A DNA stretch of 64,000 nt, taken from positions 29,952-93,951 of the forward strand of contig CAKOWI010000003.1 of NCBI GenBank assembly GCA_934122275.1, written 5' to 3'. The translations under genes were made by a program, and so were the position numbers. Below are positions 32,429 to 46,931 of the stretch, piece after piece. The DNA is from an uncultured Bacilli bacterium (lineage in GTDB: Bacteria > Bacillota_I > Bacilli_A > RF39 > UBA660). The notes under the pieces are model-generated. The model did not search any database. It was not told the DNA's origin and saw only the letters and a program-made list of their open reading frames with translations. Positions within the stretch are counted from its first letter, which is position 1, and every line of letters begins with the position of its first letter.

Positions 32429-32459
32429 GAAAAAAAGTACTTTTTGAAAAGTACTTTTT
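32429..32459 (-). terminator. Terminator at the end of the coupling-protein gene
   Basis: AAAAAGTAC...GTACTTTTT (two copies of the palindrome AAAAGTACTTTT) followed by a U-run. It overlaps the TAA stop. Confidence 0.5.
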
Positions 32460-34803
32460 ACTCAAAGAAATCATCAAAAAGGTCTGAATCATCATCTTTT
32501 TCATTCATGATTTTATTAATCTCTTCTTTATTTGTATATATTTCTTCTTTCTTATTATCCTCTTTAGGAGGTTCCTTAGTTTCTGGTTTATTACTTTTTT
32601 CTTCTTTAGGTTCTATAACATCATCAGCTGATATATCTTCCATGAAATCATCCATCATGTCATAATCGTTAGAAACCGGTTTAACACTTGATTTATCATC
32701 AATTTTTATTTTATTACTAGATAACACAGAACTATTAGAAGATAATTCTTCTTTTGCAAGTTCATCCTTTAATTTATTATCTTCTTTTTCTTCATTTTCA
32801 AGTTCTTGTATTTTAGCATCAATCTTCTTTATTATACTATCTATGTCTAAATCGTCATCATCAGTATCACTAGCTGGTATATTAGAAATTCCACTTGTAC
32901 TTCCGCCAAAGGGATTAGGTGATGGAGCTGCATTTAAAAATGGATTTGAAGACTGATTACTACCACCAAAAGGATTAGATGGTCCAAACGGGTTTGCATT
33001 ATTTACAAACGGATTTCCACCGCCAAACGGGTTATTTCCGTTAAACATTTCATTTCTCTTTTCTTCCTTTTTCTTTTTAACAAATTCTCTTATGTCAAAC
33101 AACTTAATTGATCTTTGTTCATGAGTAGGAAGCTCTGCTTTTGGAATACTACTATTATTCTTTCCATAACCAAAATCGGTATTCCAAAATGGTAAAAATT
33201 TTGTTCTTAATGGTGGAAGACGATGTTTAAGTACCAATACTTCATCTTGCTTAAATCTTTGAAGTTCAGTAACAGTAATAAGCGGCCTTGTTTCTTCTTT
33301 CTTATCTTTACCAACCTTTACAATCTTATCACCACAAAGTTTACTAATTTCTTCAAGTGCTGACAATTCACCAGTAAGTAAATATAAAATGTTTCCACAG
33401 TTACCACGAATAGTTTCGGCATCTTCATTACCATAAACTTGCTTTAACTGTGCAAAGTTTTGAATTATCATGGTCATTCTTATTTGTCTCGAACGAGCTG
33501 CTGTAATCATTGTTGTAATATCTTTGAACTTTGGCATATTTGCAAACTCATCAAGTAAAAAGTTAGTTCTAATTGGAAGCTTACCACCATGTCTTTGTGC
33601 AACTGCAATCAGTGATTCATAACATTGCTTTACAAAGATTGTTGCAAGTGCATGATAAGTAGTTTTTTCATCTTGTATTATCATAAACACAGCAGTTTTT
33701 CTCTCACCTATCGTTTCCATATCAAAATCACTTCTTGATAGCATTTCTGATAAATTCCTTGTAACCGCAAATACCTTTATTTTTTGTTTTAAAACCGAAT
33801 CAATAGAGTTTTTAGTATCTTGTGGTGCATTTACTGTACCCAATGCATTAATTGCAGCAGGGCTTGCAGGATCTTTCATCTTAAAGTACTCTTTCATATA
33901 AGTTGAAGCTCCAACTTTTTCATCACCAACAGTCATCATTAAGTTTACAGTTGAAATACTTATCTCATCTTCTTTTGCATCCTCAAACATTCCAAGTGAA
34001 AGACCTGTTAAAAAGTCTGCAGCAGAATTAGTCCAGAATGGATCATTTGATTTTTCATCAGTTGCAATATTAATTGCCATATCGTTTAAAAGTTCATTTG
34101 CTTTGTCTTGATTACCTTCTTTATAATACTTATAAGGAAGTGTATATGGATTCCAGCAACTACCATTTTTAGGATCACGAAAATTAACAACTATTACATC
34201 ATATCCTAAGTTTTTTAACATTTCTCCATTTTTTTCATAGATTTCACCCTTAGGGTCAGTAATAACCATTGATTCACCCTTTTTAGCTAATAAATTAACT
34301 AATGGATTAATAACCATCTGAGTTTTACCAGAACCAGTAGCACCAATAACAAGTGAGTGTGCTTCACCATTATCTACATATACTAAGTTTTTCTTTTTAT
34401 CATAAACAAGAGGAAATCCAGCTGCTGTTGATTCTTTAGCACTTATTTCAACTGGTTCAACATCTTTAAACTTCTTATATTCATCTTCTTTAGCAAATCT
34501 ACCAAAACCCTCTTCTTTCTTTCCTTCAACAAAACCAATTCCCTTTTCAGTACTAAAAAAGTGACTTGAAACACTAGCAACTAAAGCTATTATTGAAACT
34601 ATCCAAAATAAAAGTGTATATTTTAACATTGGAGGAAAAAATGCCTGTACAAAATTAAAAGTAAACTTAAAATCTGAACCAACTTCATCATAAGTAAAAT
34701 GATAAAAATTATTCACACAAATAGCAATAACTACGAGCAACAAAAGACATGCCCATAAAAAAGCAACAACGTCTTTTTTCTCTGCCCTAAATTTTAATTT
34801 CAT
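32458..34803 (-). CDS. Type IV coupling protein (VirD4/TraG family) with a long NPF-repeat and acidic C-terminal tail
   Basis: N-terminal transmembrane segments, Walker A VIGATGSGKTQ, Walker B-like FLLDEFANM and RSRQIRMTMIIQNFAQL. The tail carries about 8 NPF motifs and then a D/E-rich end. Confidence 0.8.
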   Translation of the reverse strand: MKLKFRAEKKDVVAFLWACLLLLVVIAICVNNFYHFTYDEVGSDFKFTFNFVQAFFPPMLKYTLLFWIVSIIALVASVSSHFFSTEKGIGFVEGKKEEGFGRFAKEDEYKKFKDVEPVEISAKESTAAGFPLVYDKKKNLVYVDNGEAHSLVIGATGSGKTQMVINPLVNLLAKKGESMVITDPKGEIYEKNGEMLKNLGYDVIVVNFRDPKNGSCWNPYTLPYKYYKEGNQDKANELLNDMAINIATDEKSNDPFWTNSAADFLTGLSLGMFEDAKEDEISISTVNLMMTVGDEKVGASTYMKEYFKMKDPASPAAINALGTVNAPQDTKNSIDSVLKQKIKVFAVTRNLSEMLSRSDFDMETIGERKTAVFMIIQDEKTTYHALATIFVKQCYESLIAVAQRHGGKLPIRTNFLLDEFANMPKFKDITTMITAARSRQIRMTMIIQNFAQLKQVYGNEDAETIRGNCGNILYLLTGELSALEEISKLCGDKIVKVGKDKKEETRPLITVTELQRFKQDEVLVLKHRLPPLRTKFLPFWNTDFGYGKNNSSIPKAELPTHEQRSIKLFDIREFVKKKKEEKRNEMFNGNNPFGGGNPFVNNANPFGPSNPFGGSNQSSNPFLNAAPSPNPFGGSTSGISNIPASDTDDDDLDIDSIIKKIDAKIQELENEEKEDNKLKDELAKEELSSNSSVLSSNKIKIDDKSSVKPVSNDYDMMDDFMEDISADDVIEPKEEKSNKPETKEPPKEDNKKEEIYTNKEEINKIMNEKDDDSDLFDDFFE

Positions 34804-34864
34804 ATTAAGTCCTCCCTTTTTAAAGGTCTATTACAAGAGATATTATATCAAATATTTAATGTTT

Positions 34865-35590
34865 TTAATACTCTAATTTATTATTTTTATATTTATCATA
34901 TAAAACCTTGCCAACAATTACTATAACTAATGCCAAAATAACAAATATAAATATGTATGAATTGTTTTTAATCCCACTAATAACCTTGTTTTTATTTTCC
35001 TCTTTTTTTGCATTTTTTTCAAAATCATTTTTATTTATTTTTATATATAATCCCTTATCATCACTAGTTGTAGAATCAAACTTCCAAGTATAAGTTTTTT
35101 TATTAACACTATCTGCATTATTTTCTTCTGCATTTATAGGAAGCGTTAGGTTAAACTCTACCTTATCAAGAACAGGCCAAGTATTACAATCAGAACAGTA
35201 TGCAATATGACCTGTTTCATTTTTTATTTCATAATAATTTTCTGTTTCGGTACAACTAATATGTTTATATATATACTGACTAAAAACTGTTTTATTAATA
35301 AATTCACAAATATTATCAAAACTATTAGTTAGTACCACACTACCGTTTTCTTTTCCATATATTATACTACTTTTATACTTTCTAGTATCTAATGCATCTT
35401 TATAATACTTTAAAGTCATATTATATCTATTATTAAAATCACTTTCTGAAAGTCCAGAAGAAGGTGCTTTAAAAGTTACTTTTTCAGATACTTTTCCATC
35501 ATAATTAACTACAACATCAGATTTAACCGTACATCCAGATAAAATAATTAATAAAACTATAATACTAATTATGCATTTAATCTTTTTCAT
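34865..35590 (-). CDS. Lipoprotein with an additional C-terminal transmembrane anchor (paralogue 1)
   Basis: Lipobox LSGC. The C-terminal transmembrane segment and tail VLYDKYKNNKLEY are paralogous to the next gene, which also shares a TYTWKFD motif. Confidence 0.6.
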   Translation of the reverse strand: MKKIKCIISIIVLLIILSGCTVKSDVVVNYDGKVSEKVTFKAPSSGLSESDFNNRYNMTLKYYKDALDTRKYKSSIIYGKENGSVVLTNSFDNICEFINKTVFSQYIYKHISCTETENYYEIKNETGHIAYCSDCNTWPVLDKVEFNLTLPINAEENNADSVNKKTYTWKFDSTTSDDKGLYIKINKNDFEKNAKKEENKNKVISGIKNNSYIFIFVILALVIVIVGKVLYDKYKNNKLEY

Positions 35591-35601
35591 AGCAACCTCC
35601 T

Positions 35602-36285
35602 TTAATATTCCATCTTATTACTCTTATACTTATCATATAATATTTTACATATGAAAGCTATTACAAGTATTAATAAAACAATTATAGCAATCGATAACTT
35701 TGTATCCTTACTATTCTTATCACCTTTTTGTTTATCGATTGTCTTATTACTATATTTTTTAATCTTTAGTTCTAATTTACTTTCTTTTCCATCATCAAAC
35801 TTCCAAGTATATGTATTTTCATTTACTTCATTAGCATTACTTGAAACAGCTTTATCAGGAAGAGTTATATTTAAACTTAGGCTTTGTAATTCATTTTCAC
35901 CAGAACTTAAATACTTTGAACTAGCTACAACTTCATATGTATTATTTGATTCAGTACACGTTATATCATCAAAATAATCTTTAAATACAGATTCCTTAAA
36001 TAAGATACAAATATTATTATAACTATTAGAATATTTTCTCATTATGTTTTCGTTATCATCTAATATATCAACTTTGTAATTAGGAAGATTATTACTACCT
36101 AACTGAATCTCATATTCATCATTAACATATTTTGAAACACCATATCCTTCTAATTCAGCTATATTTTGTGAAAGTAAAACTTCTTCTGTTACAGAGTTAT
36201 TTTTATCAACATTTATATTTACATTTGCTGTGCATCCTGTAAAAAGGAAACATATAAGTAAAATAATTAAAGTTTTCTTTTTCAT
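35602..36285 (-). CDS. Lipoprotein with an additional C-terminal transmembrane anchor (paralogue 2)
   Basis: Lipobox FTGC; C-terminal transmembrane segment plus ILYDKYKSNKMEY; NTYTWKFDD motif. Confidence 0.6.
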   Translation of the reverse strand: MKKKTLIILLICFLFTGCTANVNINVDKNNSVTEEVLLSQNIAELEGYGVSKYVNDEYEIQLGSNNLPNYKVDILDDNENIMRKYSNSYNNICILFKESVFKDYFDDITCTESNNTYEVVASSKYLSSGENELQSLSLNITLPDKAVSSNANEVNENTYTWKFDDGKESKLELKIKKYSNKTIDKQKGDKNSKDTKLSIAIIVLLILVIAFICKILYDKYKSNKMEY

Positions 36286-36297
36286 AATATTCCCTTT

Positions 36298-39200
36298 CTA
36301 CTGTGTTTGACCAACATAAGATACATTTTTATTTATGTATAGTGTAGCATTCATAAGTCCAGCACCTTTATGTGACTTTGCATAATCTCTTGATGGTTTA
36401 TAAGGAGGATTTTGTAACTCTATATGTAGGTGTGGTCCAGAAGATGAACCGGTATTTCCAACTTTTCCAATTAATTGTCCTTTAGATATCTTATCACCCT
36501 CATTAACAAGTCTCTGACTAAAGTGAGCATAAAGTGTTTTATATCCATTACCATGATCTATTGTAACAAATATCCCGTAAGAATTATATCCCACGTCACA
36601 AATACCCATTCCATAGCAATTTGAAGAATAATCACCTACTTTTGATACTATACCACCATCCATAGCATAAACATTATTACCAGAAACCACATTATCTTTT
36701 TTATTCAAATCTACTGCACCATGATCCTTACCATACTGTCCTCCATTCTTACAGTAAAACGGAAAACAACTTGCATTACCAGAATTTGAAAAGTCTCGAG
36801 TTGTATCACTTGGATCTACTGGATTTCCTAAAAAACCAGTTGCACTTCCATCTCCTACACTACAATAATTTTTAACGATATCAGCTGATTTGTTACTTGT
36901 GAATAAGAAGAAACTTCTGCCATCTGTCATGTAATTTATTATTTCTTCTATATTTAAATAAGTAAAGTCAGGTCTTTCGTTATATTTATTATCCATAGGA
37001 TCTGCTATTATTAATTTACCATCTTGAGTTACTCCTTTTATTACTAAGTAATGGCCACTAGATCCTTTCCATCCAAGTCCAACACTTGCTATAACAAGTC
37101 CTCCAGAATTAAGTGTCTTCTTAACCTTTTCTTCTGCATCTTTAGCTGTTGCTAAAACAGAATCATATGTTAAACCGTGCTTATTTGCTGCATATTTTAA
37201 ATATCCAGGTGCAGTACCAGAAATTCCATCTCCACAGTATCCTGCTTGTCTTGCTTCCTCATTAGTATCAAGTGGTGTTGTACCTTCACCAGTTAAATTT
37301 GCTAAAACCATTGACATAGAAGTTACACCACATCCACTACTAGAAATAGATGAGTTATCACTTCTACCACAAAATGTTTGTTTATAACTTCTTTGTGAAT
37401 AATAAGTAAATTTATCTTCTGGTATTTCACAGCCTCCTACTGAACTTACTCCAACACAAGAACCTGATACTTTAGCTAGTGAACTAGTACTAGCATCATA
37501 TTCAGCAAATCTTGATTCACTATAAGCTCCATTTGTACCATATAAAATAGATTTATAATCCTCTCCTGATGAAGCTAAATTAGCTGCTTTAGTTTGTGAA
37601 AGACAAGAACCAACAGTACATGAACCAATTCCATAATCACTAGCATAACTACCACCAAAAGCTTCATTATCACTATCATAGATATATTCATCTTTTATCT
37701 CATCAAACCATTTTTCATAATTTGCCAATCTTTCTGCAGGTAATTTAGGTTTATTACTACAACCATCATACACATCACAGTAAACTTGATCATTGGTACT
37801 AGATGCCATATGAAAAACTATTTTATCTCCATAATCATCGTATTTTCTACCCATTCCAACAATTCCCGGAACACTACTACCACTTTGAGTTCTACCTAAT
37901 GTAAAACTCTTTGCAGCAATCATTTGTGCTTTTACGTATGCTTCAACATCTGAATCAATTTCTGCATATGTAACACCCATAATATAATCTTTAAAAGACA
38001 ATTCTGATTTGTAAATATCACTAGGAGATAAACTACTGCTATTATACACAGTTACATACATTTCATTTCTTATTAAGTTTCCTCCATCTGAATAGCCTAA
38101 ACTAGTAGATGCAGTAGAACATATTATATTTGTATACACATATTCTAAAAATAAATCCTTTTTCGCATATAATTCTTCTATTATAGCATCTGCAAATTCA
38201 TCTCTTAACTCATTTTTAACAGAGTCAAACATTTCTTTATATCCGTTATATGCTTCAAAAGAATCATCAAATCCAGAATATCCTTTATCTTTTTTAAAGT
38301 AGTTATCTTTAAGATATTCTTTAAATTGTTCTTCAGTAGAACCATTTAGCTCTTTCAAGATTTTTTTCAATTTTCTTCTAATCTTACTTTTTCTAAGTGG
38401 CTGAAGATACATATCATTTTCCTCTTTATCATTTGCATCGTCATCAACATCTTCGGTATCATTATCAGCATCAATCTCTTCAGTATCATCATCAATATCT
38501 ATCGGTGTTTCATCTGTTGCATCCTTTTCTAAATAACTTAAAACATTTCCATCATGTAACGTACCAAAATAAGGATACAAAACCGTTATCATTGCAAGAG
38601 AACCATCAGCATTAGGATACTTTGCAAAAAGTTTTCTCATCTTTTGAAGCGTTTTTTGGTCTGCTTTTGAATAATTGCTTGTATTATCACTATCATTTAC
38701 ATCACCACCAGGACCTGGTTGAAGTGTTACTATAATAAATATTATTACTAATGTAACTATAAGTATAGCTAATACTGCAACAACAATATACCAGTAATTA
38801 ACAACAAATTCAATAATTTTTTGGATTGCTTTAACCGTTTTTTTAGCCTTATCAACTTTATCTTTAACATTATTAACTGCTTGACCTGTCTTTGTTTTAT
38901 TTGCAGCTTGTTTAGCTAAATTTTTTGGATTTGCTTTATTTTTAATCCTATCTTTTAAACTTCCCTTATTATCAGAATTATTATTGTTATTATTTCTATT
39001 TCTATTATTTTCTTGCTTATTTTTAGCTTCTTGCCTTTTTTCATCTGAACTAGATTTTGGTTTTTTGTTATCTTTTTGATTATTTTTATCACTTTTGTTA
39101 TTTTTTTGATTATCATGATTGCTTTTAGGATTTTCTTGTGGTTTATTTTCTTGTGGCTGATTTTTATTTCCATCATTATTTTTTTCTTGATTTTCATTAT

Positions 39201-39798
39201 TTTTGTTAGAATTTTCTCCATTTTTATTCTCATCTTTTTTATCAGAATTTTTCCCATCCTGATTTTCATCTTTTTTATCAAGGTTTTCTTTATCTCGATT
39301 CTCATCTTTTTTATCAGGATTTTTCTCATCCTCATTCTCATCTTTTTTATCAAGGTTTTCTTTATCTTGATTCTCATCTTTTTTATCAGGATTTTCCTCA
39401 TCTTGATTCTCATCTTTTTTATCAGGATTTTCCTCATCTTGATTCTCATCTTTTTTATCAAGGTTTTCTTCACCTTGATTTTCATCATTTTCGTTACTTT
39501 TAGTTTCATTTTTGATGGAATCTGCTATTTCTTGGTCATTATTATCTGACAAATCTTCCATATAATCATCTAGAACACTTTCACTTTCTTCAGTATTTGA
39601 AGATGGTAATTCTTCAAATTTAATATCTGCTTTACCAGATATTTTTACATTTGTTGGTTCAACTTCTATATCTTTTATTTCAAATTCTATTTCATCGTTC
39701 CCACTTTTATTTTCTGCATTAGTATTATTTACATTATTCTTACTAGCATTTTCAACATTACTCTTTTTTTCATTATTGTATCTATCGTTTGTATTCAT
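36298..39798 (-). CDS. Giant T4SS-associated cell-wall hydrolase: acidic repeat region, transmembrane segment, SpoIID/LytB-like domain, C39-like/papain-like cysteine peptidase domain, and M23 metallopeptidase domain
   Basis: Transmembrane segment IVVAVLAILIVTLVIIFIIVTL. YIMGVTYAEIDSDVEAYVKAQMIAAKSFTL is SpoIID-like. SSSGCGVTSMSMVLANL...GHYLVIKG is C39-like. DHGAVDL...GYKTLYAHFS...GNTGSSSGPHLHIELQ matches the M23 HxxxD and HxH motifs. Confidence 0.7.
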   Translation of the reverse strand: MNTNDRYNNEKKSNVENASKNNVNNTNAENKSGNDEIEFEIKDIEVEPTNVKISGKADIKFEELPSSNTEESESVLDDYMEDLSDNNDQEIADSIKNETKSNENDENQGEENLDKKDENQDEENPDKKDENQDEENPDKKDENQDKENLDKKDENEDEKNPDKKDENRDKENLDKKDENQDGKNSDKKDENKNGENSNKNNENQEKNNDGNKNQPQENKPQENPKSNHDNQKNNKSDKNNQKDNKKPKSSSDEKRQEAKNKQENNRNRNNNNNNSDNKGSLKDRIKNKANPKNLAKQAANKTKTGQAVNNVKDKVDKAKKTVKAIQKIIEFVVNYWYIVVAVLAILIVTLVIIFIIVTLQPGPGGDVNDSDNTSNYSKADQKTLQKMRKLFAKYPNADGSLAMITVLYPYFGTLHDGNVLSYLEKDATDETPIDIDDDTEEIDADNDTEDVDDDANDKEENDMYLQPLRKSKIRRKLKKILKELNGSTEEQFKEYLKDNYFKKDKGYSGFDDSFEAYNGYKEMFDSVKNELRDEFADAIIEELYAKKDLFLEYVYTNIICSTASTSLGYSDGGNLIRNEMYVTVYNSSSLSPSDIYKSELSFKDYIMGVTYAEIDSDVEAYVKAQMIAAKSFTLGRTQSGSSVPGIVGMGRKYDDYGDKIVFHMASSTNDQVYCDVYDGCSNKPKLPAERLANYEKWFDEIKDEYIYDSDNEAFGGSYASDYGIGSCTVGSCLSQTKAANLASSGEDYKSILYGTNGAYSESRFAEYDASTSSLAKVSGSCVGVSSVGGCEIPEDKFTYYSQRSYKQTFCGRSDNSSISSSGCGVTSMSMVLANLTGEGTTPLDTNEEARQAGYCGDGISGTAPGYLKYAANKHGLTYDSVLATAKDAEEKVKKTLNSGGLVIASVGLGWKGSSGHYLVIKGVTQDGKLIIADPMDNKYNERPDFTYLNIEEIINYMTDGRSFFLFTSNKSADIVKNYCSVGDGSATGFLGNPVDPSDTTRDFSNSGNASCFPFYCKNGGQYGKDHGAVDLNKKDNVVSGNNVYAMDGGIVSKVGDYSSNCYGMGICDVGYNSYGIFVTIDHGNGYKTLYAHFSQRLVNEGDKISKGQLIGKVGNTGSSSGPHLHIELQNPPYKPSRDYAKSHKGAGLMNATLYINKNVSYVGQTQ
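39211..39489. repeat. In-frame 36-bp tandem repeat, about 8 copies, encoding DKKDENQDEENP-type units
   Basis: The unit ctcatcttttttatcaggattttcctcatcttgatt recurs, with two adjacent perfect copies around 39370-39441. It encodes aa ~104-196 of the hydrolase. Confidence 0.85.
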
Positions 39799-39905: not shown

Positions 39906-41702
39906 TTATAATCCACCACCAGATCCAAATGAATCTAGTTCTGCTTCTGTAACAGTTACATCAACACGCATTCTTCTACTTCCACAAACTAATAGAGCTT
40001 CACCTTGATTGTACTTTTTAATACTTTCTTTTTCTTGTTCATTAAGGTCTATTAATTTTGCTAAATCTTCAGCACCTTGCTTTTTAAGACCCATAACTAA
40101 GTAATACGAAGCATTATCAAAAATTGCTTTGCCCTGTGTTATTACTGATGGTTCAGCAAAGTCACTTGGCTGTTGTGTAATTATTAAAGTACCACTGTTG
40201 TACTTTCTAGCACGTCTTTGAATTTGTGCTAAAAAGTCAGCACCTATAGTATTATTACCAGAAAGTAAAATATGAGCTTCATCTACCATTAATACTGTAT
40301 TTGTAGAGCGATCTAAGCAATGACTCCATGCATACTTTAATATATTAAAGAATAAAGCATTTCTAATATTTTCATCTGCATTCATCAAATCCCTAATATT
40401 AAATACTATAAATTTAGACATAGGTTTTATAGTTGTATGATTATCAAAATAATACTTTAACTCTTTTGTAAGCGGTCTTATTTTAAGTTCTAGTTTTTCT
40501 AATATATCTCTTTCATGAGTTATTTGATCACCAAATGCCTCAAGTCTTCTAACTAAAGTTTCATAAAGGTCAGAAAATGTTGGATATTCATTAGAACTTA
40601 AATTTGAAAAATCTGTTTCAAAAGATATACCAAAACGTTGATAAGTTAATTGTGCCATTTCACTAAACATAGTTAATACATCTTCGGTAATGGTTGGATC
40701 ATAATATTTCATAAATGCTTTTAAGAACTGTAATGTTTTAGTTAAAACAGTATATCCCAAACCATTTCTTAATTCTTCCTCATCAGCTTCTAATATAACT
40801 TCAAGTGGATTTATCATGCCAAATTCTCCGCCTTTACCAAGGTCAATAAAGTCTCCACCCATTCTAGATGCCATTTCCTCTAATTCACCTTCAGGATCTA
40901 TTACAACTGTCTTATAACCATTTCTTATATAGTTTCTAACAAGTAATTTAGCCGCTGTTGATTTACCACTACCTGTAGTACCAAGTATGATCATATTAGC
41001 ATTATTTCTATTAAACTCTTTTCTTATTTGATATAAGAATTGATTAAATAATATAACACCACCAGAGAAATCTGTTCCAAGAAGACAAGATGGACCTGGA
41101 TCCTTTAAGCTGTCAAAGATAAATGGATACATTGCCGCTATTGTAGGAGATGCAATTGGTGTACCTATTTGATCTTCTATATCTTGCTTTGGAAATAATG
41201 GAATTATAGATTTAAGTACTTTTCTTTGTTCAAATCTTAATGGAATTGCTCTAATTTCCATAGTTGATAAAAAGTTTTTAACTTGTAGTTTCTTTTGATT
41301 TAGTTCCTCTTTACTATCAGCTGAAACAACTAAATGCATTTGAAAATCAAATATTTTAGATTGATTAGTTGTAATCATTTGAATAAAATCATTTAATGAT
41401 TCAGAATCCTGTCTTATCTGTTCTTGAGCTGTTTTATCATTTTCCTTTTCATATTGAGCTTTTAAATCCGCTAATTGTTTATTAAGCATCTTAGTCATTA
41501 CATCAAAAGGAAGAGGAATATGTTTAATAACTACTTTTACACCAGGTGTACTGGTTATATCAGAAAGAAAACCTGGACTTATCCACTTTGGATAAGAAAC
41601 CACAGTTAGTATAGTACACCATTTATCACTAATTATAAACTCTGAAGGCTTAAATTCTAACCCTTTAGGTGCTAATTCTTTTTTTATACTAATATTTCCC
41701 AT
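39906..41702 (-). CDS. VirB4/TraE-family conjugal ATPase, ATPase portion of a split gene
   Basis: Walker A ILGTTGSGKSTAAKLL, Walker B VLMVDEAHILL, and GTLIITQQPSDF. The start ATG shares one nt with the upstream stop (TAATG). Confidence 0.8.
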   Translation of the reverse strand: MGNISIKKELAPKGLEFKPSEFIISDKWCTILTVVSYPKWISPGFLSDITSTPGVKVVIKHIPLPFDVMTKMLNKQLADLKAQYEKENDKTAQEQIRQDSESLNDFIQMITTNQSKIFDFQMHLVVSADSKEELNQKKLQVKNFLSTMEIRAIPLRFEQRKVLKSIIPLFPKQDIEDQIGTPIASPTIAAMYPFIFDSLKDPGPSCLLGTDFSGGVILFNQFLYQIRKEFNRNNANMIILGTTGSGKSTAAKLLVRNYIRNGYKTVVIDPEGELEEMASRMGGDFIDLGKGGEFGMINPLEVILEADEEELRNGLGYTVLTKTLQFLKAFMKYYDPTITEDVLTMFSEMAQLTYQRFGISFETDFSNLSSNEYPTFSDLYETLVRRLEAFGDQITHERDILEKLELKIRPLTKELKYYFDNHTTIKPMSKFIVFNIRDLMNADENIRNALFFNILKYAWSHCLDRSTNTVLMVDEAHILLSGNNTIGADFLAQIQRRARKYNSGTLIITQQPSDFAEPSVITQGKAIFDNASYYLVMGLKKQGAEDLAKLIDLNEQEKESIKKYNQGEALLVCGSRRMRVDVTVTEAELDSFGSGGGL

Positions 41703-42241
41703 TATGATAACACCGTCCCAAATTCAGTTTTTTTACCCCCGTTTAAGAAATTATCTAATATACTTCTTAAATCACCATCATTAGCTTGACTGCCCACCAT
41801 ACCAGCATTAGCAAGCCCACTTATTATAAGTCTTAACTTCTTTTGAATCATATCAACACTTTTGTCCCTAAATAGAAAATAGAATTCTATATCAGATACA
41901 TTATCACTAAAGTCCTCAGCCTTATTTAAATCTTGATTTATTAGTTTTCTTCTTACTGGATCATTTATTTGATTATACATCATCTGCATCTCTGCTATAT
42001 AAACTGATATATCAACTGGTCTGTCTGCAATAACAAGCCAGAATTCAAAAGTAAGCGAGTTATATAAATCCTTAAGTCCATCAATTACTCTAAATTGATC
42101 GTTTTCATCCATAATGAATATATTCTTTGGTGCAACTTTTACTCCTGCAACCTTATATCCATTATCAAGCTCTATCATGCTATTTGCTATATTCCTTATA
42201 GGAACAAAACTTTCTGTTGTTACTCTATTCGTTGTACTCAT
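41702..42241 (-). CDS. VirB4 N-terminal domain encoded as a separate ORF
   Basis: FVPIRNIANSMIELDNGYKVAGVKVAPKNIF...FWLVIADRPVDIS resembles the N-terminal region of Gram-positive VirB4 homologues (Tn916 Orf16, TcpF, PrgJ) as I recall them. The combined length of 777 aa is typical of full-length VirB4. Confidence 0.55.
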   Translation of the reverse strand: MSTTNRVTTESFVPIRNIANSMIELDNGYKVAGVKVAPKNIFIMDENDQFRVIDGLKDLYNSLTFEFWLVIADRPVDISVYIAEMQMMYNQINDPVRRKLINQDLNKAEDFSDNVSDIEFYFLFRDKSVDMIQKKLRLIISGLANAGMVGSQANDGDLRSILDNFLNGGKKTEFGTVLS

Positions 42242-42542
42242 CTTTTACACGCCATCCTTTCCATACTAATTCATTTTTATCCTTCATATAAAAATTATAT
42301 ATATTTTGTAATATGCATAACACATTATGATAATTGGGTATCGGTAAAACAAGAAATGCACTTATTAAGATAGGCAGTAAAACAATTACACCAAGAACCA
42401 TTGAAGATGGTTGAAATATTAAAAATAGTATAAATGTAACTAATGAACCAACCGATAAAATTATTAAATCAATAGGTCTAAAGGCACTAAATATAAGCTG
42501 TCCTTTTTTAGTATTTGCTGCAATTAAATATTGATTATTCAC
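42225..42542 (-). CDS. PrgI/TcpE-like (VirB3-like) small membrane protein
   Basis: 105 aa with two transmembrane helices, immediately upstream of and overlapping VirB4-N. The position and topology match VirB3 analogues. Confidence 0.5.
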   Translation of the reverse strand: MNNQYLIAANTKKGQLIFSAFRPIDLIILSVGSLVTFILFLIFQPSSMVLGVIVLLPILISAFLVLPIPNYHNVLCILQNIYNFYMKDKNELVWKGWRVKDEYNE

Positions 42543-42558
42543 TTATATCATCCCCTTT

Positions 42559-45147
42559 TTATTTTTTTTCTTCTTTTTCTTCTATACTTTTAATTTTATC
42601 ATCAATTTTTTTAGCAGAAATAGCTAATTGATTAACCTTATCAGCTAGAGTGCCTCCTGGAAGCTTATCAATTACTAGTTTCAATTCTTTTTGCGCATCA
42701 TTAATTTCAGTTATAACTTGTATATTTTCCGTCATAGTTGAATAAAATTGTTGTTCTTCATCAGATATTTTTGTAGCTTCATCCTTGTCTAACAATTCTC
42801 CACTTGTACTATCTGCATATTCTTTAGCATTTTTTTCCATTTTTTCTAATTGATCAATTTGTCTTTCTAGTGTTGCTTTTTCTTCGTCACTTGCAATAGC
42901 CATTCTTTTTGTCGCATCTGAAATAGCATTTTCAATATTCTTTATATTTTGAGATATGCTATCACCTATCGATAAATTAACAAGTGCAGAACCAAAATCA
43001 AATCCACTCATAGCTTGCATCAAACCGTTTCTAATATTTAACGAACTCAAACTTTCATCACTAATATTTTGTTTTGCAGCATTATATGCTGACACAGCTT
43101 GCTGCATAGTATCATTATTTTGACTATAATTATTAATTGCAGTTGTTTGGTAAGAGTTAATAAGTTTTTCTTGATTTTGCATAGCAGAAGAATCTCTGTT
43201 AAATATTCCACCGCAATCTTTTGATATGCTCTCACCAGTAACAGTTTTTCCGTTATCAAACTTTACATTTTCTATTTTACCATCGCTTGTAAGAGAAATC
43301 CCACTCGCAGATAGTCCAGAAATTTTTCCATTTTCTAACTTTATCATTCCCTGATTTAATCCGTACTGAACAGCACCAAAAGTATCGTTATTTATATCTA
43401 TTTTAGATTTAGTCATAGCATCCATTATCTTATTTGCATCGCCTTGTCCAGCAACAACCTTTCCTTGCCCTATTCCGACTTCTTGAATTCCATAATTTCC
43501 GCCTTTGGTCCAACTTTCAACCTTTTTCTGCTTATTAATTGCATCCCTCTTATCGGCCAAAGAAGATGGTGTACCATATACATTTTCCATTGCTCCGGGC
43601 AATCTCATTATTTTTGCTAGTGCTCTATCATAAATACCATTTTTATTATTCATTCCTACTCTGCCAGCAAAATTATCAGTAGCAGTTTTTGCCGCGTTTA
43701 AGGCTCCTTTTATATTATCCGCTTTAAAGCCTAAACTAGCTGAGTTTATAATACCGGAAGCCGTGGACGCAAGCAATCTTTTAGCATTTGAACGATTTGA
43801 TATACCAGCATCACCATATGCTTCTTTTCTCGCTTCATTCAAATGTTTTCTCTGATTAAAATAGCCCTTGATACCACTAGCACCGTCGGTACTATATGAT
43901 TGTCTTGCTTTACGAGTATGCTGAAGATTTTCATTTTTATCTCTTACTGCCTTTTTCTCAGCACGTCTATTCTTATTCTCGTTGATGAATCCTCGAACCC
44001 CACCAGCTCCAGCAGCTGCGGCTGTATTTGCCACCTTATGTCCAACTTTTGTTAAGGCTCCTCCTATTAAGGCAGCAGAACCTAATTTCTTACCAATTCC
44101 TAAGCCACCTAAACCAGCATCAATTCCTATTAATTTTCCAATCCACTCTGGTGCTTTTTTTGCGAAAATAAGAATAGATATTAATACAGTTAACTTTCCT
44201 ATACCTTTTTCATACCATTCGGAGAAATTAATTTTAGGTATAAGACTAATGAGCAAAAGGGTTAAGGAAATGATTGCTAATTTTATAAATAAACTAGCAT
44301 AAGTTTTTAAGGTTGTAGTTACCCAGTTTTTAAATGGTCCAGATTTAGCTGATTTTGGATCTACATATGTTGCAATAAATAATGGTGCTACAATTTGAAG
44401 AACTGCTAGCTCAACAGTTCTAATACCTATATCAATCGCAAAACTAAATAATATATACGTTAAGAAAATTCCAACCACAAACGTAAGCATCGCTTTATAA
44501 ATATACACAAATTCTTTTTCGCCATTTACCGTTTCTTGTACAGAGGCATATTTTGCAAGAGAAGTCATCTTAAATCCGCCATTTTCAGGGTCATCTTCAC
44601 CAGTCATTGTTTTTCCAGCCGCCATGTTTTCATAAGCGGTTTTTGCATCTTGACATTTACCAGAACAAGATGTTATATTTTCATTCCAAGTAATTAAAGC
44701 TCCTATTGCAATGCTTTGCATGGCTCTACCCGGATTAGTCTTTTCTAAAGTTTCAGTATTCAAAAATAGCCTATCCACGACATGATTTTTTACTATAAGT
44801 GCTTGAATGTCATAAGCTTTTTCAAACACTTTTGGAACTGCTATTAGCATAGCAAACATAATTAATATATTTATTCCGACGTTTGCTATTCCATTTCCTT
44901 TTTCTGTTAACTTATCCGGATTAATCATAGCATTGACCAAAATAATGGCAACCCTAAAAAACGCAAATAATCCCATGACAACATATAAATTTTTCATAAC
45001 TGTCTCTATAGTATCTGTACTAAACAACGGATTTTTTGCCATATCATTAATTAAATTGTATGCATTATCAACTAAACCAAAAACTACAGAATCTAAGGCC
45101 ATCCCAATCGTTCTTAATATACCAATAAAATTTATTAATATTTCCAT
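42559..45147 (-). CDS. VirB6-like polytopic membrane protein with a long C-terminal Gly/Ala-rich and coiled-coil extension
   Basis: About 6-7 transmembrane segments in the first ~380 aa, then GAALIGGALTKVGHKVANTAAAAGAGGV and a soluble ~450-aa tail. The position equals Tn916 Orf15, TcpH or PrgH. Confidence 0.55.
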   Translation of the reverse strand: MEILINFIGILRTIGMALDSVVFGLVDNAYNLINDMAKNPLFSTDTIETVMKNLYVVMGLFAFFRVAIILVNAMINPDKLTEKGNGIANVGINILIMFAMLIAVPKVFEKAYDIQALIVKNHVVDRLFLNTETLEKTNPGRAMQSIAIGALITWNENITSCSGKCQDAKTAYENMAAGKTMTGEDDPENGGFKMTSLAKYASVQETVNGEKEFVYIYKAMLTFVVGIFLTYILFSFAIDIGIRTVELAVLQIVAPLFIATYVDPKSAKSGPFKNWVTTTLKTYASLFIKLAIISLTLLLISLIPKINFSEWYEKGIGKLTVLISILIFAKKAPEWIGKLIGIDAGLGGLGIGKKLGSAALIGGALTKVGHKVANTAAAAGAGGVRGFINENKNRRAEKKAVRDKNENLQHTRKARQSYSTDGASGIKGYFNQRKHLNEARKEAYGDAGISNRSNAKRLLASTASGIINSASLGFKADNIKGALNAAKTATDNFAGRVGMNNKNGIYDRALAKIMRLPGAMENVYGTPSSLADKRDAINKQKKVESWTKGGNYGIQEVGIGQGKVVAGQGDANKIMDAMTKSKIDINNDTFGAVQYGLNQGMIKLENGKISGLSASGISLTSDGKIENVKFDNGKTVTGESISKDCGGIFNRDSSAMQNQEKLINSYQTTAINNYSQNNDTMQQAVSAYNAAKQNISDESLSSLNIRNGLMQAMSGFDFGSALVNLSIGDSISQNIKNIENAISDATKRMAIASDEEKATLERQIDQLEKMEKNAKEYADSTSGELLDKDEATKISDEEQQFYSTMTENIQVITEINDAQKELKLVIDKLPGGTLADKVNQLAISAKKIDDKIKSIEEKEEKK

Positions 45148-45156
45148 ATAATCCTC

Positions 45157-45930
45157 CTAAAAACAAAGTGAATCTTCTAGACCAAACCATGTAAAGATTA
45201 TTCTTATAAGTAGTGGTAAATACATTAGTATGCAAAGTGCTATTACTCTTTTAATAAAATTTACACTGCTTTTCTTAATAGCATCACTATCATTGTTTCC
45301 TACTGCTTTTACAAAATCAATAGTTCCCATAACCATTACTAATATTGGTGTTAATAATATAAGATATCCCCATAATTCTTTTACTATTTCTCTAATTGAA
45401 TCATCACATGCAAGATTCTTGGTAGGTGTAAGATTTCCCATAGAACTAGTATTTCCACCAGAAGAACTAGAAGAATTTGATGATTTTACATTAGCCGCGT
45501 CAGTTTGAACATCTATTATTTCCGGAGTTATATCATCAATCTTAGTTTTCTTTATATCAGATGCATTAACGGTTATACTTTTAGTATTATTTCTGTCAAC
45601 TTCTAATTCAAAAATCACATTTCCATAGGTTCCAAAATCAGAACTACTTAAACTTTTACTGCACGTTGTACCATCATTATTAGTAATTAAATAATCTATT
45701 GTATGAACAGTACTAGTTTTTCTTGCTCTAACATCAATTTTATAAATTAAAGTGCTATCAGTACTTTTTTCCTTATCAACTTTCTGTTCTATATTACCAC
45801 CAAAATCTGTATTATTACCGTGATCAGATAAAGTATATTTTCCACACTCATCAGCTTTAACACCTGCTATTCCAACCAAAAAAGGAATAATAAGTAAAAG
45901 CATAAACAATAATTTTTTAACTTTTCTCAT
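45157..45930 (-). CDS. Secreted protein with a C-terminal VirB2/pilin-like two-helix domain (large paralogue)
   Basis: Signal peptide, beta-rich domain, Ser-rich linker, then PILVMVMGTIDFVKAVGNNDSDAIKKSSVNFIKRVIALCILMYLPLL, which aligns with the 108-aa protein. ATG at 45930 after an AAAGGATGA RBS. Confidence 0.55.
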   Translation of the reverse strand: MRKVKKLLFMLLLIIPFLVGIAGVKADECGKYTLSDHGNNTDFGGNIEQKVDKEKSTDSTLIYKIDVRARKTSTVHTIDYLITNNDGTTCSKSLSSSDFGTYGNVIFELEVDRNNTKSITVNASDIKKTKIDDITPEIIDVQTDAANVKSSNSSSSSGGNTSSMGNLTPTKNLACDDSIREIVKELWGYLILLTPILVMVMGTIDFVKAVGNNDSDAIKKSSVNFIKRVIALCILMYLPLLIRIIFTWFGLEDSLCF

Positions 45931-46013
45931 AATAAATATCATCCTTTAAACAAATTTTAACTATTATCATAATAAGAATAACATTTTTTTGTAAAAATTA
46001 AAACCCTTTTTAT

Positions 46014-46044
46014 CAAATAAAAAAAGAAACTAATCTTAGTTTCT
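46014..46044 (-). terminator. Intrinsic terminator directly after the small pilin-like gene
   Basis: AGAAACTAA-GA-TTAGTTTCT followed by TTTTTTT on the minus strand. Confidence 0.6.
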
Positions 46045-46049
46045 ATTTA

Positions 46050-46376
46050 CTATTGAAGTTTGCTACTAAAAATATTACTTATATCAGATGATGTACTATT
46101 CCAACATTCTTTCCATTCATCATTACCAATCCATCCCATTACTATTGAAACTATAAGTGGAACGGCAAAAACTATAACAGCAGCTATTACTCTTTTTATT
46201 AAAACTTTCTGATTTTTCTTTATATCTTCTTCTTTACCAGCAATGACAGCTTTAACCAAGTCAATTGTTCCTAATACTATAAGAATAATTGGAACAACCC
46301 ATTGAATTATTTTAAGTATAAATTTTACTATAGCAACAACATCGCCTAACCCTTCACAATCAGCAAGTACGAACAT
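46050..46376 (-). CDS. Small VirB2/TrbC-like (pilin-like) two-helix membrane protein
   Basis: PIILIVLGTIDLVKAVIAGKEEDIKKNQKVLIKRVIAAVIVFAVPLIV forms a hydrophobic helix, a charged loop and a second hydrophobic helix. GGAGGAG RBS, first gene of the cluster. Confidence 0.55.
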   Translation of the reverse strand: MFVLADCEGLGDVVAIVKFILKIIQWVVPIILIVLGTIDLVKAVIAGKEEDIKKNQKVLIKRVIAAVIVFAVPLIVSIVMGWIGNDEWKECWNSTSSDISNIFSSKLQ

Positions 46377-46402
46377 ATTATCTCCTCCAATCTTATATTA
46401 GT

Positions 46403-46431
46403 ATTCTAAAACATTTTTACGTCTTTGTCAA
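46403..46431 (-). promoter_or_regulatory. Near-consensus promoter for the small pilin-like gene (TTGACA-17-TAGAAT)
   Basis: Read on the minus strand: TTGACAaagacgtaaaaatgtttTAGAAT. Confidence 0.55.
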
Positions 46432-46514
46432 TTTGTATTTATAAATAATTTATTTTTTTACATTTTATTTGTATTAATTAATAATAAGTGATAGAATTAT
46501 TTTGGGTGATATAT

Positions 46515-46931
46515 ATGAAAAAAGGATTAAAAATATTAGTTTCAGTATTAATTATGTGTTTTATACTTTCAGGATGTTCTGAAAGTAAAAACATAAAAAG
46601 TATTAGTTTAAATGAATTTAAACAAAAAATAGAAAATAAAGAAACATTTGTAGTATACGTTGGTAATAAAGACTGTGTTCATTGTAATAATTATATGCCT
46701 ACATTAAAAAAAGTACTAAAAAATTATAACATTACAATATATCAAATTGATAACAGTAAATTAACTGAAGAAGAATATGGTAATTTTAAAACTTATGTAA
46801 GTATTTCTGGAACTCCAACTATAGCATTCATAAAAAACGGTGAAGAAGAATCAACTTTAGATAGAATAGTTGGTGAAACAGATGAAGAAACTACAATAAA
46901 AAAATTTAAGTCTAACGGTTATATTAAATAA
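46515..46931 (+). CDS. Thioredoxin-fold lipoprotein (CxxC = CVHC)
   Basis: Lipobox LSGC and VVYVGNKDCVHCNNYMPTL...ISGTPT (cis-Pro loop) indicate an extracytoplasmic thioredoxin-like protein. Confidence 0.7.
   Translation: MKKGLKILVSVLIMCFILSGCSESKNIKSISLNEFKQKIENKETFVVYVGNKDCVHCNNYMPTLKKVLKNYNITIYQIDNSKLTEEEYGNFKTYVSISGTPTIAFIKNGEEESTLDRIVGETDEETTIKKFKSNGYIK

Follow-up and report, generated by a model that had tools for sequence, protein, structure and literature searches.

Uncultured bacteria of the order RF39 are a prevalent, reduced-genome clade of the gut, and a 64,000-nucleotide (nt) stretch of one such genome (GTDB lineage Bacteria; Bacillota_I; Bacilli_A; RF39; UBA660; assembly GCA_934122275.1, contig CAKOWI010000003.1, positions 29,952 to 93,951 of the forward strand), hereafter the window, carries a type IV secretion system (T4SS) gene cluster headed by two small membrane-protein genes. 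An earlier reading of the letters alone (the original prediction) proposed these two genes as paralogous VirB2-like pilins. Here, we report a computational follow-up of the pair, for which we use the working labels pilS (108 amino acids) and pilL (261 or 257 amino acids). The best explanation found, with a probability of roughly 0.62, is that pilS and pilL encode two VirB2-family (T4SS_pilin, PF18895) subunits of a chromosomally fixed, relaxase-less monoderm T4SS that is core to RF39-like reduced-genome gut Bacilli.

The pilin candidate genes

The pilS open reading frame (ORF; 46376-46050, minus strand) is preceded by a sigma-70-type promoter (TTGACA-17-TAGAAT; 46431-46403, minus strand), which matches the consensus at 11 of 12 positions and is the best of the region, and by a Shine-Dalgarno sequence, GGAGGAG (46388-46382, minus strand), read off the sequence 5 nt ahead of the ATG. 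A terminator-like, AT-rich 8-bp hairpin with a U-run (46044-46014, minus strand) begins 5 nt past the stop codon. Between this hairpin and pilL, 5' of the rest of the cluster, lies a second, weaker promoter-like site (TTTACA-18-TATGAT; 45995-45966, minus strand; 10/12, on consensus match alone). PilS is without a signal peptide; about 6 to 18 residues precede its hairpin, which is made up of a first transmembrane helix (TM1, approximately residues 19 to 43), a basic loop (residues 44 to 58), and a second helix (TM2, approximately residues 59 to 83), with Cys7 before TM1 and Cys91 after TM2.

The pilL ORF (45942-45157, minus strand) is 261 codons long, but its real product is probably 257 amino acids, starting from the ATG at 45930, because homologues begin at the fifth codon. 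Numbered on the longer form, PilL has a typical signal peptide (residues 1 to 31, ending in VKA/DE) and then an ectodomain with an immunoglobulin (Ig)-like beta-sandwich (residues 32 to 156; 45475-45849, minus strand), a disordered Ser-rich linker (residues 157 to 178; 45409-45474, minus strand), and a C-terminal hairpin of the PilS kind (residues 179 to 261; 45160-45408, minus strand). Four of its cysteines (Cys33, Cys94, Cys179, and Cys260) occupy invariant alignment columns.

Paralogy and family assignment

The shared C-terminal module claimed by the original prediction was recovered by two methods: PilS residues 27 to 84 and PilL residues 197 to 254 align without gaps at 26 of 58 identical positions (45%; BLASTP, E value of 5e-14), and a hidden Markov model (HMM) built from 39 PilS homologues found PilL at an E value of 2e-14. 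A tblastn search of the whole 1.08-Mb genome gave no third copy of the module. Because the pairwise and profile matches coincide with the lack of a third genomic copy, the similarity is not an artefact of hydrophobic composition, and by these alignments the two hairpin modules are paralogues. A PF18895 match on contig C2 was rejected as a false positive, since it was weak and lay inside a 256-amino-acid ORF for a multi-pass membrane protein.

Related loci were collected from species-representative genomes (80 loci) and hold 177 modules, 101 with a short N terminus and 76 with a long one (60 to 466 residues ahead of the hairpin). The commonest array, in 45 of the 80 loci, is a short gene followed by a long one, the same order as in the window. 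In a maximum-likelihood tree of the hairpins, that of the window's PilL belongs to a group (support, 100/99) made up of 54 long modules and 2 short ones, and the short/long label changes 15 times over the tree versus 57.5 times in shuffles. By this topology, the short and long forms are distinct, old, maintained lineages.

Homologue matches to PF18895 (gathering cut-off, 26.6 bits) were counted at E values of ≤0.01. The family was matched by 38 of the 39 PilS homologues (best E value, 6.9e-8), with no other family near, and by 8 of 20 PilL orthologues; many PilS homologues already bear a precomputed PF18895 match. The connection to classical pilins runs through a 99-amino-acid protein from another genome of the class (locus L090, 9738-10037, plus strand), which scores above cut-off in both PF04956 (TrbC/VirB2; 36.7 bits) and PF18895 (30.4 bits), is encoded between VirD4 and a set of VirB6-like, VirB4, and lysozyme/M23 genes, and is named a TrbC/VirB2 family protein by NCBI (Mollicutes genome). 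This bridging protein, which has only two homologues, points to a link of the PilS family to classical pilins that is indirect but concrete; an hhalign comparison of the PilS profile with the bridging protein as a single sequence found no relationship. A T4SS locus of other Bacilli encodes an 897-amino-acid protein with a C-terminal PF18895 hairpin (locus L091, 3277-5970, minus strand), and because of these two proteins, VirB2-family genes have a wider distribution in monoderm Bacilli than reviews say.

The models derived from mycoplasma proteins came less close. PilS scored 11.3 bits (E value, 0.21) against NCBIfam NF045849 (Mbov_0395), short of the curated cut-off of 40 bits, and this model was matched by 2 of the 39 PilS homologues at E values of ≤0.01. 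The C terminus of the 286-amino-acid MAG4940 model was touched by 17 of the 39, at subthreshold scores.

Predicted structure and the cysteine pair

AlphaFold, run with the homologue alignment, modelled PilS as a two-helix hairpin (helices 11 to 46 and 49 to 82; mean predicted local distance difference test [pLDDT], 80). The PilL model consists of a signal-peptide helix (residues 5 to 23), eight strands over residues 35 to 144 forming a beta-sandwich (pLDDT, 80 to 87), a short helix, a disordered Ser-rich segment (residues 157 to 177), and a hairpin (helices 181 to 215 and 219 to 253). These models agree with the architecture given in the original prediction, both for the two hydrophobic helices separated by a charged loop (the VirB2/TrbC topology) and for what comes ahead of the hairpin in the larger paralogue (signal peptide, beta-rich domain, and Ser-rich linker). 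The PilS loop, AGKEEDIKKNQKVLIKR, is net basic (K/R-rich), and both tails or flanks are acidic; because of this distribution, the positive-inside rule would place both ends outside and the loop inside. The PilL sandwich resembles generic Ig, fibronectin type III (FN3), and ApaG-like folds (Foldseek; best E value, 5e-5; template-modelling score, ~0.5), so that the model has the shape of a surface module, with no specific function attached.

Sequence conservation is uneven along the pair. The PilL ectodomain is 15 to 24% identical in relatives versus 32 to 63% for the PilL hairpin, 58 to 71% for PilS, and 85 to 90% for VirB4, a divergence pattern that would suit a surface-exposed, diversifying PilL module carried by an assembly element that is itself conserved. 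In two near-strain PilL variants (P0125 and P0126), the signal peptide is 89 to 93% and the hairpin 80 to 82% identical, and about half of the sandwich is missing or replaced, which indicates cassette-like ectodomain turnover inside a species-level group.

In 175 of the 177 modules, short and long alike, one cysteine immediately precedes helix 1 and a second immediately follows helix 2, and the two modules without the full pair are ORFs truncated at the N terminus; at the background cysteine frequency of 1.1%, both flanking cysteines would be met by chance in ~7% of modules. The pairs of the window (Cys7/Cys91 in PilS and Cys179/Cys260 in PilL) both lie at the predicted outer end of the hairpin, and PilL has two further conserved cysteines in its ectodomain. 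Among the PilS homologues, Cys91 is invariant and the cysteine before TM1 (Cys7) is conserved in most alignment rows. The flanking pair is missing from PF18895 proteins encoded in the T4SS loci of other Bacilli. TrbC and VirB2 are cyclised head to tail by a peptide bond; by analogy, a disulfide may join the two hairpin ends and be functionally like that cyclisation. A candidate oxidase for the cysteine pairs is a PedC/BrcD-like, thioredoxin-fold lipoprotein with a CxxC motif (46488-46931, plus strand; PF00085, E value of 3.4e-10; TIGR01295, E value of 7.3e-16), whose gene is divergent from the pilS promoter; in 30 of the 80 loci, a homologue of it is encoded upstream of the pilins.

Nearly all short pilins start with the hydrophobic tetrapeptide M-F/Y-I/V/L-L, followed by a segment of variable length and then by the conserved cysteine. 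Candidate roles of this N terminus are a processing site or a short membrane-dipping segment.

Expression signals

The hairpin 3' of pilS reads AGAAACUA-AGAU-UAGUUUCU, followed by the U-run. Its 20-nt stem-loop by itself folds at -6.3 kcal/mol, and it was not called by a consensus terminator scanner, which demands three G-C pairs. Across the 80 related loci, a hairpin with a T-run (counted at a ΔG of ≤-6) follows 57 of 86 short pilin genes versus 14 of 91 long ones, with stem sequences that vary by locus. A promoter (at least 10 of 12 consensus matches required) precedes 58 of 78 first pilin genes versus 26 of 96 later ones, mostly as TTGACA-17-TAnnAT at a fixed distance, and sites of the GGAGGA or AGGAGG type are frequent ahead of first pilin genes in relatives. 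Judged from these comparative counts, the design of strong promoter, short gene, leaky terminator, and rest of the cluster is conserved.

The near-consensus promoter and GGAGGAG ribosome-binding site that the original prediction assigned to the small gene were borne out by these data. Its claim of a private intrinsic terminator stands as far as the conserved position of a hairpin and T-run goes, but the hairpin is weak when taken alone (z score given below) and left the scanner silent; it is probably a leaky terminator or attenuator. The dedicated strong promoter and terminator of pilS suggest a large molar excess of its product, as for a polymer subunit.

Gene cluster and distribution

Downstream of pilL, all on the minus strand, the cluster continues with an extended VirB6/TrbL-like membrane protein (862 amino acids; 42559-45147; PF19597 TrbL_4, E value of 1.6e-9; NCBIfam Mbov_0396/MMCAP2_0566), which starts 9 nt past pilL, and with three ORFs (39906-42542) for a VirB3-like protein (105 amino acids), the N-terminal part of VirB4 (179 amino acids), and the VirB4 ATPase (598 amino acids). 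On the NCBIfam VirB4_plasma profile, these three ORFs match positions 4 to 73 (E value of 0.3, not significant), 100 to 280 (E value of 3.2e-14), and 293 to 891 (364.7 bits; E value of 7.7e-109), respectively; the best match of the last is a mycoplasma integrative and conjugative element (ICE) VirB4. The three-way VirB3/VirB4N/VirB4 split is a conserved natural split rather than a pseudogene, because it recurs in 53 of the 80 loci. The stop of the 179-amino-acid ORF and the start of the 598-amino-acid ORF share the base at 41702.

The remaining block (32458-39798, minus strand) encodes a 1166-amino-acid wall hydrolase (C39-like plus M23) and VirD4 (781 amino acids), recognised by Pfam matches, together with two paralogous lipoproteins. 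The latter (227 and 241 amino acids; 34865-36285) are encoded in tandem between the hydrolase and VirD4, and each has a C-terminal transmembrane anchor ending in YDKYK(S/N)NK(M/L)EY; neither has a family match, and they may stand in for VirB8-like parts. One flank of the cluster holds undecaprenyl-diphosphate synthase (uppS) and glycosyltransferase genes, the other rhodanese, RmuC, ScpA/B, and Mur ligase genes. These flanks, including uppS, glycosyltransferase, and thioredoxin genes, are syntenic in the nearest relatives, with housekeeping genes 75 to 84% identical. Elsewhere in the genome, a 9.2-kb contig (C18) has a GC content of 36.5% versus 25 to 28% in all others; it may represent an rRNA operon, or else DNA of foreign or contaminant origin.

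In the related loci, virB6 comes after the pilin genes in 63 of 80 and virB4 in 54 of 80, and the position directly upstream of VirB6/VirB3/VirB4 is kept in >50 loci. Orphan modules, with no virB6 or virB4 match in the flanks fetched, were also seen (e.g., loci L023, L033, L063, and L079). Within the window's order, the PilS profile matched genomes from 94 of 98 genera (193 of 201 genomes); those matched are all 0.6 to 1.6 Mb in size and carry 1 to 13 modules each (e.g., 13 in G017 and 11 in G140). The same profile matched 9,203 cluster representatives in a library of 1.8 billion proteins, and a tblastn search of 72,556 plasmids with PilS gave no match. Relatives are gut metagenome-assembled genomes (MAGs) labelled Bacilli, Mollicutes, or Tenericutes, as well as Clostridium sp. 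CAG:594, "Ca. Onthousia," and "Ca. Aphodocola," the last of which corresponds to GTDB genus CAG-594 of order RF39 (PMC8035907). Several RF39-like records (L010, L014, L016, L030, L037, and others), with the same synteny and VirB4 proteins 85 to 90% identical, are titled "uncultured Muribaculaceae bacterium" and are probably mislabelled MAGs.

Relaxases were sought in the genome (95% complete) with four models, PF03432, PF02486, PF03389, and PF01076 (MOBP, MOBT, MOBQ, and MOBV), none of which had a match; the search covered these families only. A resident ICE or other conjugative element was considered for the window locus and rejected on the near-universal, vertical distribution and the lack of a relaxase of the four families. 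The T4SS is best described as a core chromosomal system and not a resident ICE, because modules are present in 193 of 201 genomes and none of the four relaxase families was matched.

Interpretation

If pilS and pilL do encode pilin-family subunits, their products would insert into the membrane with both ends outside and the K/R-rich loop inside, and a disulfide (Cys7-Cys91 in PilS; Cys179-Cys260 in PilL), probably formed by the neighbouring thioredoxin-like lipoprotein, would staple the outer ends. PilS would be the major subunit, with its excess due to a transcript that is monocistronic or attenuated, and the VirB4/VirB6 machine would extract it for the assembly of a stalk or short pilus across a wall opened by the 1166-amino-acid hydrolase. 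PilL would be a low-copy subunit that joins via the same hairpin and holds its variable Ig-like domain outside as an adhesin or target-recognition module. With VirD4 but no relaxase, the substrate could be protein, DNA that travels by a route not yet recognised, as in transfer mediated by mycoplasma ICEs, or some other cargo.

Several observations weigh against this reading. PilS itself scores 25.4 bits against PF18895 (E value, 1.5e-5), 1.2 bits below the gathering cut-off, and PilL, at 11 bits, is also below it; the family is moreover a predicted and not an experimentally demonstrated pilin family. No match to PF04956 was found in any of 39 family members. A search of PDB sequences with the PilS-homologue profile gave only noise (rhodopsin and designed repeats) and no solved pilin, and a Foldseek search of the PDB with the PilS model gave a best E value of 2.0 and no pilin; such fold searches are uninformative, and the fold alone proves nothing, because two-helix hairpins are so widespread. 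VirB2, TraA, and TrbC typically have a long leader that is cleaved off, which PilS lacks. The hairpin 3' of pilS, folded with its surrounding 71 nt, is weak (minimum free energy of -10.3 kcal/mol; z score of -1.2). Finally, no pilus has so far been seen in any monoderm T4SS.

This last point is shared by the main alternative, an unlikely but serious one, under which the two proteins are VirB2-superfamily T4SS parts that stay in the membrane as a channel or assembly platform and make no filament, the PilL hairpin being an anchor and docking element only. VirB2 is required in many diderm systems without a pilus (PMC12857230), the mycoplasma ICE gene at the pilS position (CDS15) is read as VirB3-like in the literature, and hairpin modules are elsewhere fused to very large proteins (897 amino acids; up to 540 amino acids), which would be awkward in a filament. 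A part that stays in the membrane accounts less well, however, for the molar excess suggested by the dedicated pilS promoter and terminator; arrays of 1 to 13 variable modules per genome resemble variable pilin arrays; and a separate VirB3-like gene already adjoins VirB4. The hypervariable surface domain of PilL and its replacement or deletion at strain level (P0125 and P0126) would also suit a factor for surface/entry exclusion or self-recognition, by which cells with the same system would be kept from redundant contacts with one another, and genes for exclusion proteins usually lie within transfer clusters. Yet PilL has the same polymerisation-type hairpin and cysteine pair as PilS, its gene sits directly between pilS and VirB6, and the long lineage is kept across genera alongside the short one, which makes such a role improbable.

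It is more improbable still that the two are unrelated small membrane proteins, such as holin-like or bacteriocin/immunity proteins serviced by a PedC-like thioredoxin, that lie beside the T4SS by chance. The adjacent thioredoxin does match a bacteriocin-maturation family best, and weak holin matches were obtained (Pfam Phage_holin_3_6, E value of 0.18; PHROG holin, E value of 0.049), but these are at noise level, with no endolysin cassette or phage context, whereas PF18895 ranks first and does so consistently. In most loci, over ~100 genera, the genes keep their place immediately ahead of VirB6, and non-RF39 homologues are also found in T4SS loci. The original prediction had named holin-like proteins, or a lack of HMM or structural similarity to VirB2-like pilins, as results that would count against it; with PF18895 in 38 of 39 homologues and holin matches at noise level, no such outcome was obtained. 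We therefore retain the reading of pilS and pilL as VirB2-family subunits. A further step, that the order-wide T4SS with disulfide-stapled pilins and a hypervariable Ig-domain pilin is a cell-to-cell organelle by which RF39-like Bacilli attach to, or exchange material with, bacteria or a host, is offered tentatively and may well prove wrong.

The bare family assignment is not new, because Pfam already has the family and NCBI uses TrbC/VirB2-like names for relatives. Our literature search turned up no publication that deals with T4SS pilins in RF39 or in any other Bacillota. The statement of the original prediction that pilin-type polymers are poorly documented in monoderms holds for the literature but less so for the databases, in which such proteins already have names (PF18895; NCBI TrbC/VirB2 family). 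Four features appear to be undescribed: the core status of the system across the order, the pairing of a short and a long form in fixed order with a dedicated expression design, the Ig-domain fusion, and the putative cysteine staple with a linked oxidoreductase.

A 2025 review of T4SSs gives VirB2 and VirB5 as absent from Gram-positive systems, with Patescibacteria as the sole exception and the only monoderms with the "potential to elaborate conjugative pili" (PMC12857230). Against that absence, the VirB2-family pair is near-universal and vertically inherited in a whole Bacillota order, has a well-marked major/minor design, a putative cysteine staple specific to the family, and a thiol-disulfide oxidoreductase encoded next to it, and thus offers a second, independent lineage for testing whether monoderm T4SSs build pilus-like conduits. 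It would also give a lead on how RF39 interacts with its neighbours, the fast-evolving Ig-like domain being a natural candidate for partner specificity. If the cell-to-cell organelle were real, Bacillota would have their first T4SS that forms a pilus, one in which a disulfide takes the place of pilin cyclisation. It would be a counterpart, whether convergent or shared, of the T4SS that is essential in Patescibacteria, and would point to a partner-dependent lifestyle of RF39.

Comparison with known systems

The VirB2, TrbC, and TraA pilins resemble the products of the window in being small two-helix hairpins with a basic loop, encoded first in a mating-pair-formation (MPF) operon ahead of VirB3, VirB4, and VirB6. 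The window differs in its monoderm host, in the proposed disulfide, which would take the place of peptide-bond cyclisation, and in that no VirB5 was identified. PrgF and PrgG of Enterococcus pCF10 (MPF-FATA) are positional analogues, two small genes before prgH (VirB6), prgI (VirB3), prgJ (VirB4), and prgK (hydrolase), with pcfC (VirD4) later. Kinship with them was rejected: the hhalign probabilities were 1.4% and 0.2%, and PrgF weakly matches Maff2, not PF18895.

Mycoplasma ICEs share the gene order of small hairpin protein (CDS15/Mbov_0395), VirB6-like protein (CDS16/Mbov_0396), and VirB4 (CDS17/Mbov_0397). The PilS family nevertheless scores far below the curated cut-offs of the Mbov_0395 and MAG4940 models and is not a member of those families. 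In contrast to these elements, the locus shows no DDE recombinase or relaxase, and its host, with Mur-ligase and wall-hydrolase genes, appears to be walled, unlike mycoplasma. The Trw system of Bartonella has several divergent VirB2 and VirB5 copies in one T4SS locus, which are proposed to vary surface binding (PMC12857230); it differs in belonging to a diderm pathogen, in having no VirD4, and in varying through whole-gene copies and not through fusion of an Ig domain to a pilin.

The Patescibacteria Southlakia epibionticum and Nanosynbacter lyticus have a chromosomal, relaxase-less T4SS with PF18895 pilin arrays that are essential for epibiotic growth (PMC12102498, PMC12857230), and this is the nearest precedent for the window's system. 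Like the window, they encode PF18895 proteins as tandem divergent copies near virB4 and virB6 of an MPF-FATA-type monoderm T4SS, usually with no relaxase, in a chromosomal, vertically kept locus of a reduced-genome host. Unlike them, the window belongs to a Bacillota host, in whose relatives the usual array is a fixed short and long pair, the long member with a secreted Ig-like domain. It is further set apart by the wall hydrolase and VirD4 within the cluster, and may also be by the near-universal cysteine pair and the thioredoxin lipoprotein.

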